A program made the position numbers and the translations under genes. From Vicinamibacterales bacterium (GTDB lineage: Bacteria; Acidobacteriota; Vicinamibacteria; Vicinamibacterales; UBA8438), in the NCBI GenBank assembly GCA_963663195.1, contig OY760136.1, positions 1,146,070 to 1,210,069 of the forward strand: a stretch of DNA of 64,000 bases, in the 5' to 3' direction. Below the pieces are notes generated by a model that worked only from the letters and a program-made list of their open reading frames with translations, did not search any database and was not told the origin of the DNA. Of this stretch, positions 11,657 through 49,992 are shown piece after piece (the stretch's first letter is position 1; the number at the start of each line of letters is the position of its first letter).

Positions 11657-11746
11657 TGGCGGAGGGACTGGGATTCGAACCCAGGAGCGAGTTTCCCCGC
11701 TAACGGTTTTCAAGACCGCCGCCTTCGACCGCTCGGCCATCCCTCC
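11657..11746 (-). tRNA. tRNA-Ser (anticodon UGA), CCA encoded
   Basis: Reverse strand reads GGAGGGATGGCCGAGCGGTCGAAGGCGGCGGTCTTGAAAACCGTTAGCGGGGAAACTCGCTCCTGGGTTCGAATCCCAGTCCCTCCGCCA (90 nt). It has a 7-bp acceptor stem, anticodon loop CTTGAAA, long variable arm and a GGTTCGAATCC T-loop. Confidence 0.93.
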
Positions 11747-32176: not shown

Positions 32177-32517
32177 ACCGGACTCTGACCCGCCGCGAGC
32201 GCCTGCGGCGCCGCCCAGAGTTCCTGAGCGCGCAACGGACGGGCGTCCGGACCCGCGGTCGCTACTTGACGCTGTTCGTCCTGCCAAACCGCCAGGACGT
32301 TACCCGTCTGGGTGTTATCGCAACGCGGCGGATGGGCGGCGCGGTTCGCCGCAACCGTTCAAAGCGCCTGGTGCGGGAGATCTTTCGCCTCAACAAGAGG
32401 CGTCGGGGTTTTGACATCGTCGTGCTGCCGCACCGCGGATTCAGCGATGCCCCATTCCTTGCACTGCAGGCGGACTACCAGGCCACGCTGCGGCGTGGAC
32501 AGCGCTCTCATGGCTGA
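32173..32517 (+). CDS. rnpA: ribonuclease P protein component
   Basis: 114 aa, basic. Contains [25 protein letters not shown] (the RNase P protein RNR motif). The TTG start overlaps the rpmH stop. Confidence 0.9.
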
Positions 32518-32812
32518 GGTTCGCCGCCTGGCAAACTGGCTGGCGGGCCTGCCCGCCGGCGCTGCATTGGCGGCGATCGCGGCATACAAGACCCTTTTTT
32601 CGCCACTGTTTACAGGTTCGTGCCGGTTCGTGCCGTCGTGCTCGACCTACGCCCGGGAGGCGGTGCTGGTGCACGGCGCGCTGAGGGGCGGCTGGTTGGC
32701 GGTACGACGGCTTGCGCGTTGCCATCCCCTATGCGCGGGTGGCCTGGACCAGGTGCCGCTGCCGGCGCACGCCGCTCCTCGCGGGCGGCCACGTACACCC
32801 GAGGCGCGCTGA
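32510..32812 (+). CDS. yidD: membrane protein insertion efficiency factor YidD
   Basis: 3' part of track ORF 32312..32812, taken from the ATG at 32510. [50 protein letters not shown] is the YidD signature. Overlaps the rnpA end by 8 nt. Confidence 0.9.
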
Positions 32813-32822
32813 GCACGCCGCC

Positions 32823-33069
32823 CTAGCAGCCTGTGTTAAAACCCCACTGCATTCGAGCGGCGATGCGGCATCCGATAGATGGGGCTGCGCCCCAAACCCC
32901 CGCCAGCCACTCGCGGGGACCCCATCCCCCCACTCCGTGGCCGGCGGGCCGCGCCGTGCGCGGCTTGTTCAGCGCTCACATATCTTCGAATATGCTCGCT
33001 CTTCACGCCTTGCCAGCCACGCGCCTCACCGCTCTCGGTGCGACACGGGGTTCTACAACAGGCTGCTAG
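32823..33069. repeat. family-A inverted-repeat element (MITE/REP-like), copy A1, carrying a nested family-B element
   Basis: Starts CTAGCAGCCTGTG...CCCCACTGCAT and ends ...ACGGGGTTCTACAACAGGCTGCTAG (the termini are mutual inverted repeats). Collinear with 43761-43927 apart from an extra 88-bp block at 32877-32964. Confidence 0.8.
32877..32964 (+). repeat. family-B GC-rich multi-hairpin repeat, copy B1 (nested in A1)
   Basis: AGATGGGGCTGCGCCCCAAACCCCCGCCAGCCACTCGCGGGGACCCCATCCCCCCACTCCGTGGCCGGCGGGCCGCGCCGTGCGCGGC. Near-identical to the reverse complement of 44172-44262. Contains GGGGC-TGC-GCCCC and GCCGCGC-CGT-GCGCGGC hairpins. Confidence 0.8.
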
Positions 33070-33070
33070 C

Positions 33071-34101
33071 TGTGATCTTTCAATAGGTTGTCCACTCGGA
33101 CCCGACCGAGGAAACTGAAGGTGGAACCCAAACAGTTTTCCGGAGGAGAGCCCGAGTGGACATCCATAAGAATGCCAAGTTGACCCCGCAGAGTCGAGCC
33201 GATGTCGTGCGGCGGGTTCTCGATGAGGGCCAGACCCCGGCGGCGGTGGCCACCGCCGTCGGGGTCTGCGCGCGCACCGTACGCAAATGGGTAGCCCGCT
33301 ATCAGGCCGAGGGCGCCGCCGGGTTGGTTGACCGCAGCTCGCGTCCGCGGTGCTCGCCACACGCGGTGCCTGGCGCCACGGTGAGCCGCATCATTGCGCT
33401 GCGTCGGTTGCGGTGGACCGGTGCGCAGATCGCCGCCGCCGTCGGTGTGGCGCCGGCCACCGTCAGTCGAGTCCTCCGGCGCCAGGGACTGGCCCGCCTG
33501 GAGGCCCTCGACCCGGCGCCGCCCGTCCGCCGCTACGAGCATCCGCATCCCGGCGACATGCTGCACCTCGACATCAAGAAACTCGGCCGCTTTCGACGGG
33601 CCGGACACCGCGTTACCCGGGACCGCAGCCGCAGCAGCCCACGCGCCGGCTGGGAATATGTCCATGTCTGTGTCGACGACCACTCGCGCGTCGCCTTCAC
33701 CCAGCTCTACCCCGACCAAAGAGCCGACAGTGCAACGGTCTTCCTCACCGCCGCCGTCGCCTACTACCGCCGCCTCGGCATCACCGTCCGACGACTGCTC
33801 ACCGACAACGGCGGCTGCTACCGCTCCAGGGCCTTCAACGCACGCTGCCGCCAACTCGGCATCCGCCATCGCTATACCAGGCCCTTCACCCCCAGAACCA
33901 ACGGAAAGGCCGAGCGATTCATCCAAACCGCGCTGAGAGAATGGGCCTATGCACACGCCTACACCACCTCAGCCCAACGAGCCCAACACCTCCAACCCTG
34001 GCTCCACCGATACAATTGGCATCGGCCACACGCCAGTCTCAAGGCCAGGACGCCCATCAGCCGAATCGGTCTGACCAGGGACAACCTGTTGAGGTACCAC
34101 A
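33071..34101 (+). mobile_element. IS481-family insertion sequence, flanked by a 6-bp GCTAGC target-site duplication
   Basis: Left end TGTGATCTTTCAATAGGTTGTCC and reverse complement of right end TGTGGTACCTCAACAGGTTGTCC (18/23 identical). The left end resembles the Bordetella IS481 terminus as I recall it (TGTGAAGATTCAATAGGTTG). GCTAGC at 33065-33070 and at 34102-34107. One DDE transposase ORF inside. Confidence 0.88.
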
Positions 34102-34106
34102 GCTAG
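33156..34106 (+). CDS. IS481-family DDE transposase (rve integrase core)
   Basis: 316 aa, GTG start. N-terminal HTH (NAKLTPQSRADVVRRVLDEGQTPAAVA...TVRKWVARY). Catalytic regions HLDIKKL, VCVDDHSRVAF, LLTDNGGCY, RPFTPRTNGKAERF. The TAG stop (34104-34106) lies in the duplicated target, outside the right inverted repeat. Confidence 0.92.
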   Translation: MDIHKNAKLTPQSRADVVRRVLDEGQTPAAVATAVGVCARTVRKWVARYQAEGAAGLVDRSSRPRCSPHAVPGATVSRIIALRRLRWTGAQIAAAVGVAPATVSRVLRRQGLARLEALDPAPPVRRYEHPHPGDMLHLDIKKLGRFRRAGHRVTRDRSRSSPRAGWEYVHVCVDDHSRVAFTQLYPDQRADSATVFLTAAVAYYRRLGITVRRLLTDNGGCYRSRAFNARCRQLGIRHRYTRPFTPRTNGKAERFIQTALREWAYAHAYTTSAQRAQHLQPWLHRYNWHRPHASLKARTPISRIGLTRDNLLRYHS

Positions 34107-34116
34107 CGACGCGACC

Positions 34117-35904
34117 ATGGAGAGAAGGGTCCTGCTCGCCGTCTTTCTGTCATTCCTGGTGCTGTACGTGTATCAGGCGCTGTTCGTGCCCCCACCGCCG
34201 CCCCCGGGGGACGCACCCCCAGAGACGCAGGCCGTCGCGCCTTCCCCGCCCGCAGCCGTCGCGGACGCGCCGCTCCAGCCGCTGACCGCCGCCCCGGATC
34301 CGTTGCAGGCGGTCGATGCTGCACCCGATCTCCAGGCGCCGGATCCGGTCGTCGGTGATACGGCGCCGCGGGATATCGTCGTGGAGAACGACCACATGCG
34401 GGCGGTGTTCACGAACCGCGGCGCCAAGCTGAGCAGTTGGCAGCTCAAGGACTACCTGGAAGAAGGTGCGCCGGTGGAGCTCCTGCCTCGCGACTTGCCG
34501 CCGGGCGAGCCGGCCCCCTTCGCGCTGGAGCTTGGCGACGCACGGTTGACGCACCTGGCGGACACCGCCCTGTACCGCGCGAGCGCCGGTCGCCTGCAGC
34601 CGACGAATGAGTCCGAGACGCTGGTGTTCGACTACGAGGACGCCACCGGATTGCGCGTCCGAAAGGCGTTCCGGTTCGATCCCGGCGCCGGTCCCTACCA
34701 GTTCACCCTGACCGTCGAGGCGTCGCAGGAGAGCCAGCCGATCAACCCGGTTCTGCGCTGGGGCCCGGCGCTGGGCGGGGTCGAGCGGTCGGCGTCCGGC
34801 TTCGCGTTCCGCCAGGGTCCGCGGGGGGTCCTCGAGGGCCGCCTGCTCGAGAACGGCGTCCTGGGGGAGATGGACATCACGCGCCCGGCGGCTGACGACG
34901 TCTTGGAGCAGGCGACGTACGAGGGCCCGATGACGTTCGTCGGAGTGGACAACCACTACTTCCTGGCTGCGGCGCTGCCGCACGGCCAGGAGACGACCGT
35001 GCAGTACCGCGCCGTGCCGCTTCCCCCTGTGCCCCCCGACGAGGACACGCGCGAGCTGATGGCGTTCGATCTCGTCCTGCCCAGCGGCTTCGCGGATCTG
35101 CCGTTCTATCTGGGGCCGAAGGACTTCGACGTGCTCGAAGCGGCGGACCCGGCGCTGCCGCAGTCCATCGAATTCGGGTTCCTGTCCTGGCTGGTAGTCC
35201 CGCTGCACCGCTCGCTGACCTGGGTGCATTCCGGCGTCGGCAACTGGGGATTGTCGATCATCATCCTGACGCTGATGATCAACGTCGTCATCTTCCCGTT
35301 GCGGCACAAGCAGGTCGTCTCGGCGCGCAAGATGCAGGAAATCCAGCCGGAGATGAAGGCGATTCAGGAGCGCTACAAGCACCTGAAGGCGACGGATCCG
35401 CAGAAGCAGAAGATGAACCAGGAGGTGATGGCGCTCTACCGCGACCGCGGGGTCAACCCGGTCAGTGGGTGCCTGCCCCTGCTGGCCACCATGCCGATCC
35501 TGTTCGCGTTCTACCGCCTGCTGTCGATGGCCATCGAGATGCGCGGCGCTCCCTTCATGTTGTGGATCACGGACCTCTCCGTGCACGATCCGCTATACAT
35601 CACGCCGGTCATCATGGGCGGCTCGATGGTGCTGCAAACCTGGTTGACACCGACCCAGGTCGACCCGATGCAGCAGAAGATGATGATGGCGATGCCCGTC
35701 GTCTTCACCTTCATGTTTCTCTGGGCCCCGAGCGGTCTCGTGATCTACTGGCTCACCAGCAACGTGCTCGGGATCGGACAGCAGGTGTTAACGAACCGGG
35801 TGATCGGACCGCCCAAGGTGCGCACCGTGCGGCCGCCGGCGGAGCGGCGCGTGAAGAAGCAGGCCAAGGGCGGATCGGGTGGGAGGAGCACGACCGGTGG
35901 CTGA
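34117..35904 (+). CDS. yidC: membrane protein insertase YidC
   Basis: 595 aa. N-terminal TM, large periplasmic P1 domain, conserved C-terminal core (GNWGLSIIILTLMINVVIFPL, MQEIQPEMKAIQERYK, NPVSGCLPLL). Confidence 0.95.
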   Translation: MERRVLLAVFLSFLVLYVYQALFVPPPPPPGDAPPETQAVAPSPPAAVADAPLQPLTAAPDPLQAVDAAPDLQAPDPVVGDTAPRDIVVENDHMRAVFTNRGAKLSSWQLKDYLEEGAPVELLPRDLPPGEPAPFALELGDARLTHLADTALYRASAGRLQPTNESETLVFDYEDATGLRVRKAFRFDPGAGPYQFTLTVEASQESQPINPVLRWGPALGGVERSASGFAFRQGPRGVLEGRLLENGVLGEMDITRPAADDVLEQATYEGPMTFVGVDNHYFLAAALPHGQETTVQYRAVPLPPVPPDEDTRELMAFDLVLPSGFADLPFYLGPKDFDVLEAADPALPQSIEFGFLSWLVVPLHRSLTWVHSGVGNWGLSIIILTLMINVVIFPLRHKQVVSARKMQEIQPEMKAIQERYKHLKATDPQKQKMNQEVMALYRDRGVNPVSGCLPLLATMPILFAFYRLLSMAIEMRGAPFMLWITDLSVHDPLYITPVIMGGSMVLQTWLTPTQVDPMQQKMMMAMPVVFTFMFLWAPSGLVIYWLTSNVLGIGQQVLTNRVIGPPKVRTVRPPAERRVKKQAKGGSGGRSTTGG

Positions 35905-36358
35905 TGATCTCGACGGGCAGCTCGTGCAGTTCGTGCAGTCGGTTACCGACGCGATGGGACTCGATCTGGAAGTCGCCGTCGAGCCGATTGCAGATGGGAC
36001 GCGCATCGTAATCGCCGGGGACGGCTGCGACGTTTTCGTCCGCCGCCGGGCGGCCGCGCTCGACGCGCTGCAACACGTCGTCAACGCGGCGTTTCGCCGC
36101 AAGCATCCGAGCCGGCACATCGTGGTGGACTGCCTCGATTACCGCAAGGGGAAGGACGCCGAGCTGCAGGAGACCGCCGTGCTGCTCGCCGGCCGCGCTC
36201 GCGAGACGGGCGAGCCGCAGGAGATGGGTCCCCTCAACCCGTACGCCCGCCGGCTCGTGCACCTCGCCATCGCCGCAGAGCCGGACGTGTCGTCGGAAAG
36301 CAGCGGTGACGCCTTCATGAAGACCGTCGTGATCTCGGCCGACGACCCGGGCCACTGA
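35879..36358 (+). CDS. jag: Jag/KhpB-type R3H domain RNA-binding protein
   Basis: 159-aa track ORF. The true start may be the in-frame GTG at about 35897 that overlaps the yidC end. KH-like and R3H region (PLNPYARRLVHLAIA). Conserved position after yidC. Confidence 0.8.
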   Translation: MGGARPVADDLDGQLVQFVQSVTDAMGLDLEVAVEPIADGTRIVIAGDGCDVFVRRRAAALDALQHVVNAAFRRKHPSRHIVVDCLDYRKGKDAELQETAVLLAGRARETGEPQEMGPLNPYARRLVHLAIAAEPDVSSESSGDAFMKTVVISADDPGH

Positions 36359-36361
36359 CGT

Positions 36362-36426
36362 GAGCAGCCCGTGGCGAACGCCCCGCTGCATACCAGCGGC
36401 GCGGGGTTTCACCACAGGCTGCTAGG
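36362..36426. repeat. family-A element, minimal hairpin copy A3 (two arms only)
   Basis: AGCAGCCCGTGGCGAACGCCCCGC TGCATACCAGCG GCGGGGTTTCACCACAGGCTGCT forms a hairpin of about 24 bp. It fills the whole jag-mnmE spacer and ends ...GCTGCTAG, 2 nt before the mnmE ATG. Confidence 0.8.
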
Positions 36427-36428
36427 GC

Positions 36429-37793
36429 ATGTACTCACCGGACGACACGATCGTTGCGGTCGCGACGCCGGCCGGCCGCGGCGGGATCGGCGTGGTGCGG
36501 GTCAGCGGTCCGGCGGCCAGCGGCGCGGCCGCCGCGGTGCTGCGCCCCAGCGGTGAGCTACGGCCGCGGCAGGCCACGCTTGCGTCGGTAGTCGCCGCCG
36601 CGGCATCCGGCCGCCCCGTGGATCAGGTGGTGGCCACCTACTTCCCCGGACCGGCGTCGTACACCGGGGAGGATGTGGTCGAGATCAGCGGCCACGGCAG
36701 CCCCGTGCTGCTGCGTCAGATCGTCGAAGCGGTCGTCCGGGCGGGCGCGCGCCTGGCCGAGCCGGGCGAGTTCACGCTGCGGGCATTCGTCAACGGCCGG
36801 ATGGACCTGGTTCAGGCCGAGGCCGTCGCCGACCTGATCGACGCCGTCACTCCCCTGCAGGCGCGGGTTGCCTTTGATCAACTCGAAGGCACCGTCACCG
36901 CCGCGATCGCCTCCATCGAAAGTGCGTTGTTCGACTTGACGGCGCGCTTGGAAGCCTCCGTCGACTTTCCCGAGGAGGGCTACCATTTCGCCGCGGCGGG
37001 GGCGGTGGCGGCCGAGACGCGGGCGCTGGTCGAGCGGACGCAGGCGCTGCTGGCCAACGCCCGCACCGGCCGGCTGGTGCGCGAGGGGCGCCAGGTCGTC
37101 ATTCTCGGGAAGCCGAACGTCGGGAAATCCACCCTGTTCAACCGGCTGCTGGGCGCACCGCGGGCGATTGTGACGGACGTGCCCGGCACCACCCGGGATC
37201 TGCTGACGGAAACCGCGGAGATCGACGGCCTGCCGGTGACGTTGGTCGACACGGCGGGGATCCGGGCGACAGCCGACGCCGTCGAGTCCGAGGGCGTTGC
37301 GCGGGCGCGCGGCGCGCTCGAGGTCGCGGCGGCCGTGCTGCTGGTGCTCGACCGCTCCCGGCCGCTGGAAGGCGCGGACCGCGATCTGCTGCGGGAGACT
37401 GCCGCCACGGACCGCGTGGTCGTCATCAACAAGGCGGACCGGCCGGCGTGCTGGGAGGCAACGGATGTGCCGGCCGCGGGCCCCCGCGTGACCGTATCGC
37501 TGCGTGAGGAGAGCGATCTGTGCGACCTGCGCGGCGTGCTGGCCGAGGTGCTGTGGGGCGGTGAGCCGCTCCGCGATACGCCGACGCTGTCCAACCTGCG
37601 TCACATCCTGCTGGTGGAAGAGACCGCGGCGGCCCTGGCGCGCGCGGCGGATGCGGCGGATGCGGCCGCGCCGGAAGAGTTGATTCTGGCCGACCTGCAG
37701 GAGGCGCGCGGCGCGCTCGAGGCAGTCACCGGGAAGCGTACGGCCGAAGACGTGCTGCAGCGGATCTTCGCCCGCTTCTGCATCGGCAAGTAG
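36429..37793 (+). CDS. mnmE: tRNA modification GTPase MnmE
   Basis: 454 aa. [23 protein letters not shown]1 [17 protein letters not shown]-terminal FCIGK. Confidence 0.95.
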
Positions 37794-41849: not shown

Positions 41850-41861
41850 AGTTGGTGGCGC

Positions 41862-41887
41862 GTGGATGTTCCACGTGGAACATCCAC
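41862..41887. promoter_or_regulatory. parS centromere-like site 1 (perfect 26-bp palindrome)
   Basis: GTGGATGTTCCACGTGGAACATCCAC. The core TGTTCCACGTGGAACA (41867-41882) matches the parS consensus TGTTNCACGTGAAACA with a symmetric change. As I recall, this is the variant reported for Pseudomonas. Confidence 0.8.
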
Positions 41888-41942: not shown

Positions 41943-41960
41943 CTGTTCCACGTGGAACAG
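41943..41960. promoter_or_regulatory. parS centromere-like site 2 (perfect 18-bp palindrome)
   Basis: CTGTTCCACGTGGAACAG. Same 16-bp core (41944-41959), about 125 nt upstream of parA. Confidence 0.8.
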
Positions 41961-42082
41961 TTGCGCGACGCCAACGCCGGAACGCGGGATCTGCCCGCTT
42001 CCGGCGCCGGAAACGGGCACGCGGGGTGGCCAATTCTTGCGTTTGGTCATACGACATAATATAGGCCGTTTAACATAATGCG

Positions 42083-42897: not shown

Positions 42898-43764
42898 GTG
42901 GCTGACAAACGCCGCGCACTGGGCCGGGGCCTGAGCGCACTCATAGCAGATTTTCCGTCACCCGCGCCTTCGCCGCCGCCGCCGCCGGCGGGCCCGCTCG
43001 AGGTCGACCTCGATCTCATCGAGCCGAATCGGGATCAGCCGCGGCGCGACATGGACGAATCGCGGCTCGAATCGCTGGCGGCGTCCATCAGGGAGACGGG
43101 CGTGTTGCAGCCTATCGTGGTGCGCCGGCGTGAGGAGGGGTCGTACGAAATCGTGGCCGGCGAGCGGCGCTGGCGAGCGGCCCAGCGCGCAGGCCTGTTG
43201 AAGGTCCCGGTGGTCGTCCGCGACGTACCGGCCGACAAGCGGTTGGAGTTGGCGCTGATCGAGAACGTCCAGCGCGAGGACCTCAACCCTGTCGAGGAGG
43301 CGCGCGCCTACCGGCGGCTCACGGACGAGCTCGGCCGCACGCAGGATCAGATCGCACAGGCGGTCGGGAAGGAGCGTGCGACTGTCGCCAACTACCTGCG
43401 GCTGCTCACGCTCCCCGACGACGTGCAGGCCGACATCGCATCCGGGGCGTTGACGATGGGCCACGCGCGCGCGATCGCCGCCTTGCCGGCGGCCGCGGCC
43501 CAGCGCCAGGCCGCGCGCGAGGTGCGCGCCGGCGGGCTGTCGGTGCGCGCAACGGAAGCGCTCGTCAAGAAGCGCCTTGAACCGCCGCCGCCGCGGCAAC
43601 CGCCGCCGCCGGACGTGCATACGCGCGCGGCGGCCGACAGCCTGCGCGTCGCGCTGGGATCGCGCGTCGAGATCGTGCGCCGGCGGCGGGGCGGGGAGAT
43701 TCGTATCGCCTTCGGCTCCGAAGACGAGCTGCAACGGTTGTTCGAACGCTTGTCCGCCCGCTAG
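42898..43764 (+). CDS. parB: ParB/Spo0J chromosome-partitioning protein
   Basis: 288 aa. RRALGRGLSALI, QPIVVRR...YEIVAGERRWRAA (ParB box/CTPase region), LIENVQREDLNPVEEA, HTH. The TAG stop lies inside the first bases of repeat A2. Confidence 0.94.
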   Translation: MADKRRALGRGLSALIADFPSPAPSPPPPPAGPLEVDLDLIEPNRDQPRRDMDESRLESLAASIRETGVLQPIVVRRREEGSYEIVAGERRWRAAQRAGLLKVPVVVRDVPADKRLELALIENVQREDLNPVEEARAYRRLTDELGRTQDQIAQAVGKERATVANYLRLLTLPDDVQADIASGALTMGHARAIAALPAAAAQRQAAREVRAGGLSVRATEALVKKRLEPPPPRQPPPPDVHTRAAADSLRVALGSRVEIVRRRRGGEIRIAFGSEDELQRLFERLSAR

Positions 43765-43927
43765 CAGCCCGTGGCAAAAGCCCCGCTGCATTCGACCGCC
43801 CATGCATCCCGCCTGAACTGTGTTGTTCGTCGCTCACATATGGTCGAATATGCTCGCTTCTCACGCCTTGTCAGCCGGGCGCCTAGCCGGTCTCGGTGCG
43901 ACGCGGGGTTTCACCACGGGCTGCTGG
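43761..43927. repeat. family-A inverted-repeat element, copy A2 (without nested insert)
   Basis: CTAGCAGCCCGTGGCAAAAGCCCCGCTGCAT ... GCGACGCGGGGTTTCACCACGGGCTGCTGG. The termini are inverted repeats. Core CGCTCACATATGGTCGAATATGCTCGCTTCTCACGCCTTGTCAGCC is shared with A1. Confidence 0.8.
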
Positions 43928-43940
43928 CGGGCCTGCACGC

Positions 43941-43971
43941 TTGCCCCGGCTCGGCGGCGAATGGTATAAAT
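43941..43971 (+). promoter_or_regulatory. sigma70-like promoter candidate for the atp operon
   Basis: TTGCCC (43941-43946), 18 nt, TATAAA (43965-43970). The only AT-rich hexamer pair in the parB-atpH spacer. It would give a leader of about 290 nt containing repeats B2 and B3. Confidence 0.3.
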
Positions 43972-44028
43972 GCCCGTTTGGCTCGCCGCGGATCGCTTCC
44001 GCTTACAAGTGCTGCGTGCGAAGCTCCG

Positions 44029-44098
44029 CAGGCCGCGCACGGCGCGCGGCGAAGGGGCCCCGCGAGTGGCCGGCGGGGGTTTGGGGCGCAGCCCCGTG
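44029..44098 (-). repeat. family-B repeat, copy B2 (shorter variant)
   Basis: CAGGCCGCGCACGGCGCG...CCCCGCGAGTGGCCGGCGGGGGTTTGGGGCGCAGCCCCGTGT. Both ends align with B3/B1, with about 20 bp missing internally. Confidence 0.75.
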
Positions 44099-44171
44099 TA
44101 GCGACGAAGTAGCGAAACCCCTCCGACGGTGAAGAACGGAGGGGGACGGCAACATGAAGGCGTCCGTCCCC

Positions 44172-44262
44172 CAGGCCGCGCACGGCGCGGCCCGCCGGCG
44201 ACGGAGTGGGGCAATGGGGTCCCCGCGAGTGGCCGGCGGGGGTTTGGGGCGCAGCCCCATCT
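44172..44262 (-). repeat. family-B repeat, copy B3 (full length)
   Basis: The reverse complement is near-identical to B1 (32877-32964). Ends 8 nt before the atpH ATG. Confidence 0.8.
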
Positions 44263-44270
44263 AAATAACG

Positions 44271-49215: not shown

Positions 49216-49992
49216 GTGAAGCCTATGCGCCTGTCCTGGGCTGCCCGCACCGATCCCGGCCTGCGGCGCTCGCAGAACGAGGACTGCCATGTGGCGCGGC
49301 CGGAGCTGGGACTGTTCGTGGTGGCCGACGGCGTCGGCGGCCACGCCGGCGGCCGCGTGGCTTCGCGGATTGCCGTCGACGCCATCGCCGCCGCCGTCGA
49401 GGCAACCGCATCCCTGGGGCCCGCGGACCGTTGGCCCCGGCCGTTCGATCCGGCGCTCAGCCCGGGCGCCAACCGGCTGCGGGCCGGGTTCGACCTCGCC
49501 AACCGGCGGATTGCCGAGCGCGTGTCGGCGTCGGCGGCCCTGCAGGGCATGGCGACAACGGCCGTGGCGGTGCTCCTGGACGGCCCTGCCGCGGCGATTG
49601 CGCATGCCGGCGACAGCCGCGCCTATCTGCTCGGGCCGGCCGGACTCACGCGCCTCACGCGCGACCATTCCTGGGTTGAAGAGCAGGTCCGCACCGGCGC
49701 GCTGACGGAGGCCGCGGCGCGCGAGCATCCCTGGCGTAACATCGTCACAAGGGTTCTCTCGGCCGAGGACGGCGCCGATCCCGAGCTGGCGGAGTTGACG
49801 CCGCGCCGCGGCGACCGCCTGCTGCTGTGCACGGACGGGTTGTCGGCGGTGCTGCCCGAGGCCGAGATTCAGGGCGTGTTGGCGGAACGTGGCGATCTGC
49901 AGGGCGCCTGCGACGCGCTCGTTCGCCGCGTCTCGAAGCGCGGCGCGCCGGACAACGTGACGGTCATCGTCATCGACATCGATGCTGGCTAA
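49216..49992 (+). CDS. PP2C-family Ser/Thr protein phosphatase (Stp1-like)
   Basis: 258 aa. RTDPGLRRSQNEDC, VVADGVGGHAGG, HAGDSRAYL, LLLCTDGL, DNVTVIVIDI metal-binding motifs. Confidence 0.9.
   Translation: MKPMRLSWAARTDPGLRRSQNEDCHVARPELGLFVVADGVGGHAGGRVASRIAVDAIAAAVEATASLGPADRWPRPFDPALSPGANRLRAGFDLANRRIAERVSASAALQGMATTAVAVLLDGPAAAIAHAGDSRAYLLGPAGLTRLTRDHSWVEEQVRTGALTEAAAREHPWRNIVTRVLSAEDGADPELAELTPRRGDRLLLCTDGLSAVLPEAEIQGVLAERGDLQGACDALVRRVSKRGAPDNVTVIVIDIDAG

Follow-up and report, generated by a model that had tools for sequence, protein, structure and literature searches.

Three layers of mobile DNA are probably stacked at a rare CTAG site downstream of yidD in a Vicinamibacterales bacterium

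Hairpin-forming MITEs (miniature inverted-repeat transposable elements) of bacteria are moved in trans by DDE insertion sequences, as is the case for Correia/NEMIS in Neisseria, ERIC in enterobacteria, and RUP in Streptococcus pneumoniae. Mobilization in trans is the standard inference for MITEs, and both Correia and RUP duplicate the dinucleotide TA. Insertion sequences of the IS5 group generate a 4-bp target duplication of the YTAR type (CTAG/CTAA), and the IS1182 family is related to them. Repetitive extragenic palindromic (REP) sequences are palindromes of 20–40 nt next to which a tag, GTAG or CGTC, is found (Di Nocera et al. 2013, PMC3733652), and they are located predominantly downstream of coding regions (PMC3733652). 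Here, we analyzed positions 32823–33069 of a 64,000-nucleotide stretch (hereafter, the window) of the genome of a Vicinamibacterales bacterium, a soil acidobacterium (GCA_963663195.1, contig OY760136.1). In this interval, which is placed between two essential genes near the replication origin, an inverted-repeat element of a family designated A, which is interrupted by a G+C-rich element of a second family designated B, lies immediately downstream of yidD.

We consider it probable that three layers of selfish DNA have piled up in this region at a rare CTAG site. A family-A element would have inserted just downstream of yidD and duplicated CTAG, a family-B element would then have entered its left half and replaced about 11 nt, and an IS481-family insertion sequence that targets NCTAGN would finally have inserted at the right-hand CTAG, making a GCTAGC duplication. 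An earlier reading of the same DNA (the original prediction) had described two families of non-coding, structured, non-autonomous repeats. This description is supported, and the repeat structure of 32823–33069, its collinearity with 43761–43927, and the inverted recurrence of the inner block were all recovered where that reading had placed them. However, the element, which had been placed between yidD and yidC, does not adjoin yidC, because a 1,031-bp IS481-family element intervenes. The earlier reading missed this element, which lies in the right CTAG of the A copy, and also a third A copy at 36365–36421.

The interval starts with CTAGCAGCCTGTG and ends with CAGGCTGCTAG. The A copy in it, A1 (CAGCCTGTG...CAGGCTG), is a decayed MITE on the plus strand at 32827–33065, with a length of 239 bp including the B insert and with substitutions in both terminal arms relative to the family consensus. 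Its left CTAG target-site duplication occupies 32823–32826 (no strand), as assigned from the sequence and from a flank analysis of 101 copies, and its right CTAG duplication (33066–33069, no strand) was reused as the IS481-family target (GCTAGC, 33065–33070). The right 106 nt of A1 are 83% identical to 43823–43928, and the left ~50 nt align with 43761–43812. These positions belong to A2, a canonical copy of 159 bp on the plus strand at 43765–43923, flanked by CTAG (43761–43764) and CTGG (43924–43927); the TAG of its left flank is the parB stop codon. A3, found by repeat search and by its fold, is a hairpin-only, internally deleted copy of 57 bp at 36365–36421 (no strand) with the flanks TGAG (36361–36364) and CTAG (36422–36425). 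It is located between the jag stop codon (36356–36358) and the mnmE ATG (36429). The right arm of A3 ends 3 nt before this ATG (window 36405–36431), so the mnmE ribosome-binding region lies inside the −42 kcal/mol stem.

Family A is dispersed well beyond the window. A scan with a pattern of the right arm, with one genome per species, returned at least 115 stretches in more than 20 genomes, nearly all of them from Vicinamibacterales or Vicinamibacteria, with up to at least 17 loci per genome (this number comes from a single 6.4-Mb chromosome). Pairing of the inverted arms across the scan loci and the window gave 101 elements with the terminal inverted repeats CAGCCCGTGGYRAAA... and ...TTTYRCCACGGGCTG; the element proper reads CAGCCCGTGG...CCACGGGCTG. 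The most frequent length is 160 nt (37 of the 101 copies). Short forms are A3-like, hairpin-only deletion derivatives of 53–91 nt, and long forms owe their size to tandem duplication inside the element, to additional small hairpins, or, in a single copy, to a 43-bp minisatellite. One copy (L034:5834–6456) has grown to 623 bp through about ten tandem 43-bp units (GAACAGGGCAACCACAAGGGTTGCCCCTACAGGTCTTGCGTA). The size variants were also considered as further nests of B, and none of them proved to be a B insertion. Family A has no coding capacity, as judged from the lack of any Pfam match and from frame-breaking indels among the copies. The sequences that flank individual A and B copies are unrelated to one another.

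Identical 4-bp flanks are present in 62 of the 101 copies, and the pairs include CTAG (43 copies), CTGA (5), CTAC (4), CTGG (4), CTAT (3), CTAA (1), and CTTG (1). In 18 copies the CTNN flank pairs are non-palindromic, and they stand in direct, not inverted, orientation. Therefore, CTAG is a target-site duplication that lies outside the inverted repeat, and its assignment to the repeat is ruled out, which amends the inverted termini of the original prediction. An IS630-type TA duplication was rejected as well: the "first base" of the element covaries with the base that follows the right-hand TA, duplicated flanks of the CTG type occur as well, and a 4-bp duplication accounts for every flank variant. 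At one locus (L006:5881–6202), two A copies lie in direct tandem through a common target. The dispersed family A is thus a true MITE, and every structural feature of a MITE that could be examined here is present. Its sequence, its CTAG duplication, its host clade, and its partner insertion sequence are new.

Two A copies (L064:1906–2065 and L064:5252–5443) occur in a complete chromosome labeled Candidatus Rariloculus (Gammaproteobacteria), and one of them is 87% identical to A2 over 169 bp. Elements with the same ends and different interiors are found in genomes labeled Myxococcota or Nannocystaceae (L068, L090). With the labels taken at face value, family A may have crossed phyla if that of Candidatus Rariloculus is right. 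Neither the A arm nor the B head was found in the viral contigs searched, and a literature search found no description of MITEs in Vicinamibacteria.

An autonomous partner of A was found at L115:3904–5368. It is 1,465 bp long, has the ends CAGCCCGTGGTGAAAGTCCC... and ...CTGCCACGGGCTG, is flanked on both sides by GTAG, and encodes a protein of 459 aa with DUF772 and DDE_Tnp_1 domains. Nine more copies (L180–L188; 1,466–1,487 bp), which were fetched via three metagenome relatives of the L115 transposase, have the same termini and are all placed between two CTAG copies. Over the ten copies, the end pattern is CAG[C/T]CCGTGGTRAARGTC... / ...CCACGGRCTG, and the transposases have 456–467 aa with the same two domains. 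The best NCBIfam models are IS1182 (164.9 bits, cut-off 270) and IS5_4 (86.5 bits, cut-off 140). Because both cut-offs are missed, the partner falls in the IS5/IS1182 superfamily but in no curated family. Its transposase has thousands of close metagenome relatives, and the best plasmid relatives (53% identity) are annotated as "IS5 family transposase". In L180 and L184 (near 1997–2159), an A-type MITE adjoins the partner through one common CTAG. Such back-to-back elements (L006, L180, L184) indicate that the duplicated CTAG of one insertion is the target of the next. From the match of termini and target, A is most likely moved in trans by an IS5/IS1182-like DDE transposase, which would be that of the 1.47-kb insertion sequence.

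The third layer is an IS481-family insertion sequence of 1,031 bp on the plus strand at 33071–34101, with the inverted ends TGTGATCTTTCAATAGGTTGTCC and TGTGGTACCTCAACAGGTTGTCC, which begin with TGTG. Its transposase open reading frame (ORF; 33156–34106) scores 324 bits with the NCBIfam IS481 model (cut-off 224) and contains the Pfam domains LZ_Tnp_IS481 and rve. GCTAGC is present on both sides (33065–33070 and, as the second copy of the 6-bp duplication, 34102–34107, no strand), which identifies the CTAG at the right end of A1 as the target. Four further copies encode an identical protein, and GCTAGC flanks were found in all five copies, including that of the window. Two of the five are nested in B elements of a subfamily with a GCTAGC in its central hairpin, which served as their site; these copies (L189:1416–2446 and L190:1416–2446) are located a short distance upstream of two genes, one of them acrB-like. 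In the window, the transposase ORF extends across the right inverted repeat and ends on the TAG of the duplicated GCTAGC; the insertion site therefore provides its stop codon. The yidC start codon follows 10 nt past this ORF; therefore, transcription of yidC must either pass through the insertion sequence or originate in it.

The choice of CTAG explains both the stacking and the position of the elements. CTAG occurs 22 times in the window, where composition would lead one to expect 184 occurrences and a Markov model 51.5, and is about eight-fold under-represented; the other permutations of the bases C, T, A, and G occur 63–651 times each. In 27 of the 101 A copies, a long ORF, rich in G+C at third codon positions, ends on the duplicated TAG. 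Stop-codon matches number 29 at distance 0, compared with one or two at any other distance. Since CTAG is rare and overlaps TAG stops, A insertions are funneled to the 3' ends of genes. The asymmetric core of A has the same orientation as the gene reading into it in 16 cases and the opposite orientation in 28 (p = 0.10). The "stop, element, next start" look of A thus results from target choice and needs no function. The original prediction had placed the A copies precisely between the stop codon of one gene and the start codon of the next and had concluded from this position that they are probably transcribed as intercistronic hairpins. That placement applies to two of the three window copies, the exception being A2, which is 344 nt from atpH. 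Because target choice explains the position, it is no evidence for a role as intercistronic RNA, and the orientation is unbiased. The TAG in the CTAG of A1, moreover, is not the yidD stop codon, as yidD ends with TGA at 32810–32812, 10 nt ahead of A1 (Pfam match on ORF 32312–32812). Three unrelated mobile elements are stacked by this rare, stop-linked tetranucleotide: the genome avoids CTAG, and the repeats supply targets.

Family B has a different architecture. It is about 92 nt long and consists of three G+C-rich hairpins, namely a head hairpin of 13 nt (GGGGCTGCGCCCC) with AAACCCCCG after it, a long hairpin in the center with a stem that covaries among copies (CCGGCCAC/GTGGCCGG, GGCGGCTGC/GCGCCGCC, GGCAAGCCC/GGGCTTGCC, GCAGCCGC/GCGGCTGC), and a terminal hairpin with a CGT loop. 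The stems covary, and the loops and the 22-nt head are invariant. Neither terminal inverted repeats nor a target duplication was found in the copies compared. B1, the three-hairpin copy in A1 (32876–32967, plus strand, 92.9 bits with a covariance model), has its head GGGGCTGCGCCCCAAACCCCCG at 32881–32902. This block recurs inverted at 44172–44263 (92 nt, 95%) and at 44054–44103 (50 nt, 90%). The former is B3, a full copy on the minus strand (44172–44263, 94 bits), whose head end is 12 nt upstream of the atpH start codon (44271). The latter is part of B2, a truncated minus-strand copy (44029–44100, 48 bits) with half of the central hairpin deleted, and its fold is no better than that of shuffled sequence (z = 0.06). 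A pair of accessory hairpins (CCTCCG..CGGAGG; GGGGACGG..CCGTCCCC) at 44112–44171 on the minus strand was recognized by its recurrence next to B; they also stand beside B in L024, L139, L146, L169, L177, and L189. A 24-mer of the B head occurs three times in the window (0.00 expected). Other forms of B include a miniature of terminal hairpin and head in a 96%-identical relative, as well as tandem pairs. With the covariance model, no additional copy was detected in the window, and 780 kb of Vicinamibacterales loci yielded few; the B hairpin sequence was not found in a literature text search.

B1, together with a preceding TAGAT, replaces about 11 nt of A (consensus positions ~47–57) without a duplication. 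B is joined to A only in the window copy, L024, and L130. Canonical A copies without B number 47, and B stands alone in at least 15 places, which indicates that A was already resident when B entered it. The original prediction is therefore upheld in its order of events and in the nesting; however, the nesting is not a clean insertion.

Some further observations were made around the B copies. In the 96%-identical relative (L177:1–300, compared with window 43770–44070), the sequence upstream of the atpH-proximal B is unrelated and contains no parB or A2, and gene order breaks at the B cluster. The short-read contigs L178 and L179 end within B. B1 (plus) and B2/B3 (minus) are on the same side of the dnaA/rpmH origin region; a replication-strand rule for B is not supported, because these three copies, the only ones available for the comparison, have opposite orientations on one replichore. 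A possible atpH promoter (TTGCCC-18-TATAAA), noted by eye at 43941–43972, was not called by a promoter scan, and no claim is made for it.

In about 15 of the 22 evaluable loci, B has its head end 2–35 nt upstream of a start codon that belongs to a real gene. The head is in each case the part closest to the gene, so that the orientation is always the same. The genes behind B include atpH (in the window), moaA, a fur-like gene, rpsJ, a peroxiredoxin-like gene, and an acrB-like gene. The exact 22-nt head was found in 59 metagenome stretches, in many of which the rest of the repeat is unrelated to B; no consistently neighboring gene was found in these contigs. The head fronts other repeats (L133:4045–4301, L154:1–200, and other loci among L118–L176), including perfect 96-bp tandem arrays, and some head copies in contigs of lower G+C content are beside promoter-like sequences resembling TTCACAAATCCGATAGGATTGCTATAGG. 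B and its relatives might form a class of structured, mobile leader modules not described before, placed directly upstream of start codons in one orientation and influencing downstream expression. The occurrence of one head (GGGGCTGCGCCCCAAACCCCCG) in otherwise unrelated repeats would then suggest a recognition site of conserved protein or RNA machinery; we regard this extended proposal as unlikely.

Family A is close to a perfect palindrome and folds back on itself along its whole length. The consensus fold of 45 canonical copies (RNAalifold) has 48 pairs; 97.2% of the cells form standard pairs, and in 20 of the 48 both partners have changed in a compensatory manner. In 500 shuffles, A was not matched once on any pairing measure, and sliding the partner by 1–3 columns lowered the pairing to 34–49% of cells. 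A3 has a folding free energy of −42.4 kcal/mol (z = −6.2 against shuffled sequence), and A1 with its insert has −114.6 kcal/mol (z = −5.2). A transcript crossing A would thus be predicted to hold a very stable hairpin, but transcription of the hairpins and any effect on the operon are putative. The pairing itself could stem from selection on a single-strand fold or from correction between the arms of a palindrome, and the covariation proposed as a check in the original prediction, though present in 20 of the 48 pairs, does not separate the two. The Rfam search suggested there returned no family for A or B; at the gathering threshold only tRNA was reported, and permissive scans gave E ≥ 0.77. 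A candidate promoter on the minus strand of A2 (CTGACA-16-CATATT) was rejected, as its "−10" columns covary as the hairpin tip and read CCTCTT in some copies.

Two other accounts of family A were weighed against the pile-up. The first, in which the similarity of the A and B copies reflects a local segmental duplication within the 64-kb region, would agree with the finding of all three A and all three B copies of the window within 12 kb. The original prediction had named further copies as a check; A occurs at no fewer than 115 loci, the B head is in 59 metagenome stretches with full B copies in other genomes, and the copies have unrelated flanks, so a purely local origin is refuted and has practically no chance of being correct. 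The other account takes A primarily as a functional structured RNA, for example one that governs processing or stability between cistrons or one that regulates translation, whose palindrome is selected at the RNA level. The covariation over the full 160 nt speaks for it, as do several conserved T-G pairs that would be A-C mismatches on the opposite strand, the location of A1 and A3 within the co-oriented rnpA-yidD-yidC-jag-mnmE string, where no terminator is predicted, and the overlap of the A3 right arm with the mnmE ribosome-binding region. Against it are the target duplications of A, its autonomous partner insertion sequence, and the lack of orientation bias toward genes. Internal tandem expansions, minisatellites, and deletions of 60–100 nt are tolerated, copies occur between convergent genes and in a genome labeled Gammaproteobacteria, and compensatory changes in a palindrome may arise by inter-arm correction without selection. 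We consider an RNA function as the main basis of family A improbable.

For family B, a competing view is that it is a non-mobile, cis-acting 5'-leader motif, acting as RNA or DNA, and that the copy in A1 is an accidental, non-functional duplicate. Its regular position and single orientation before start codons agree with this view, as do the covarying stems with invariant loops and head. On the other hand, the downstream genes are functionally unrelated, B1 has the opposite orientation with no start codon nearby, and B also comes in truncated and miniature forms, in tandem duplicates, and fused to A. An IS481-family element in the central hairpin is apparently tolerated before two genes, assemblies break at B in the manner of dispersed repeats, and Rfam has no match. 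A leader without mobility is therefore doubtful, though it deserves some weight. Much less can be said for small proteins encoded by the repeats, either the MGLRPKPPP... ORF or a 36-codon ORF at 44155–44265 preceded by GGAGGGGGA. An ATG behind a ribosome-binding-site-like sequence is conserved in the accessory hairpin beside B, and the window ORF stops 5 nt before the atpH ATG. But Pfam gives no match, indels of 1–2 nt shift the frame past codon 6 (L139 and L024 compared with the window), the pattern of conservation is that of paired stems, and B is found in both orientations. A small protein from B was rejected because its reading frame, including that of the small ORF across B upstream of atpH, is not conserved among copies, and ORF 32879–33118, which runs across the B1 block, has no Pfam match. 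The earlier statement that neither element is protein-coding thus agrees with our results, and coding by these repeats is very improbable.

Several points weigh against the interpretation as a pile-up of mobile elements. A and its partner insertion sequence have only the outer 13–20 bp in common, and mobilization of A in trans is thus what we infer from these termini. No empty site, that is, an element-free locus in a close relative, was recovered; therefore, the case for a mobile A is built on how varied its target duplications are, on the copy number, and on the partner. Copies in the source genome were counted within the 64-kb window. A1 itself is probably immobile now, given its degenerate arms. 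The B–A junction is not clean, with about 11 nt of A gone, and B carries no known marks of transposition. Finally, the compensatory changes deep in A exceed what transposase binding needs, which leaves room for selection on a single-strand fold.

The window has a G+C content of about 69% and holds the neighborhood of the chromosomal origin. According to Pfam and ORF assignments, gyrB, dnaN, and dnaA extend up to ~31.6 kb on the minus strand, and rpmH (32039), rnpA, yidD, yidC, jag, mnmE, and mnmG follow on the plus strand, with the yidC ATG at 34117 (YidC Pfam match). Downstream of mnmG are pyrF, two parS-like palindromes, parA, parB, and atpHAGD. The GC skew switches at ~32–34 kb. The palindrome TGTTCCACGTGGAACA is present twice upstream of parA (41851–41882 and 41944–41975, 60 nt apart) and resembles a parS centromere. 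A tRNA-Ser (11657–11746) was called by both ARAGORN and Rfam, and a tRNA-Arg (anticodon GCG, 49872–49951) was called by ARAGORN and is absent from the Rfam gathering-threshold output. The nearest public sequences are metagenome-assembled Vicinamibacterales (Acidobacteriota) genomes.

These results provide a pair of MITE and insertion sequence for the little-studied Vicinamibacterales. They also have practical consequences for annotation, since the repeats generate spurious ORFs such as MGLRPKPP..., break short-read assemblies (L178 and L179), and lie within the conserved rnpA-yidD-yidC-jag-mnmE string beside the origin. Among all these findings, something new might come solely from the position of B before start codons and from its widely shared, invariant 22-nt head, and these could matter more.

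Compared with Correia, ERIC, and RUP, family A has the same size range (100–200 bp), terminal inverted repeats, lack of coding capacity, tens of copies per genome, and size variants by internal deletion or insertion. It is likewise intergenic, often within operons, and folds as a rod over the whole element. Family A differs in its unrelated sequence, its 4-bp CTAG duplication, its IS5/IS1182-like partner, and its Vicinamibacterales hosts; as to RNase III processing and promoter activity, it is known here from sequence alone. The partner resembles the IS5 group and IS1182 in its DUF772 and DDE_Tnp_1 domains, its length of 1.47 kb, its 4-bp CTAG-type duplication, and its best NCBIfam models (IS1182 and IS5_4). 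However, its termini begin with CAG, unlike the GG or GA of IS5, and it scores under both curated cut-offs.

The original prediction had called both repeats MITE-, REP-, or BIME-like (BIME, bacterial interspersed mosaic element), which is correct for A as a MITE. B is not a MITE, and its position upstream of start codons is unlike that of REP or BIME sequences. B shares with REP, BIME, and REPIN (REP doublet forming a hairpin) elements a short, G+C-rich cluster of imperfect palindromes that is extragenic, repeated, and sometimes in tandem, with neither terminal inverted repeats nor a target duplication. In contrast to REPs, it has no adjoining GTAG or CGTC tag, its head hairpin being flanked by TAGAT or CCTT and AAACCCCC; about 15 of 22 loci are upstream of start codons, whereas REPs are mainly downstream of genes; and it combines three different hairpins instead of one repeated unit. 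No REP-associated tyrosine transposase (RAYT) was seen with B, within 64 kb of the source genome and without a systematic search for Y1 transposases. Palindrome-associated elements derived from IS200/IS605 lack terminal inverted repeats and a target duplication, have subterminal hairpins, and carry a fixed sequence of 4–5 nt 5' of the left end. B lacks such repeats and duplication and has hairpins at both ends, but TAGAT precedes its head in only about half of the copies. The orientation of B, judged from three copies only, is not tied to the direction of replication. We therefore file B as REP/BIME-like in operation, not as a member of a REP or BIME family. The IS481-family element of the window agrees with IS481 of Bordetella pertussis and its family in its score above the cut-off, its TGT ends, and its 6-bp NCTAGN duplication. 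Nothing essential differs, and it is an ordinary new member of the family that lands in the CTAG of the A duplication and in the internal GCTAGC of B.

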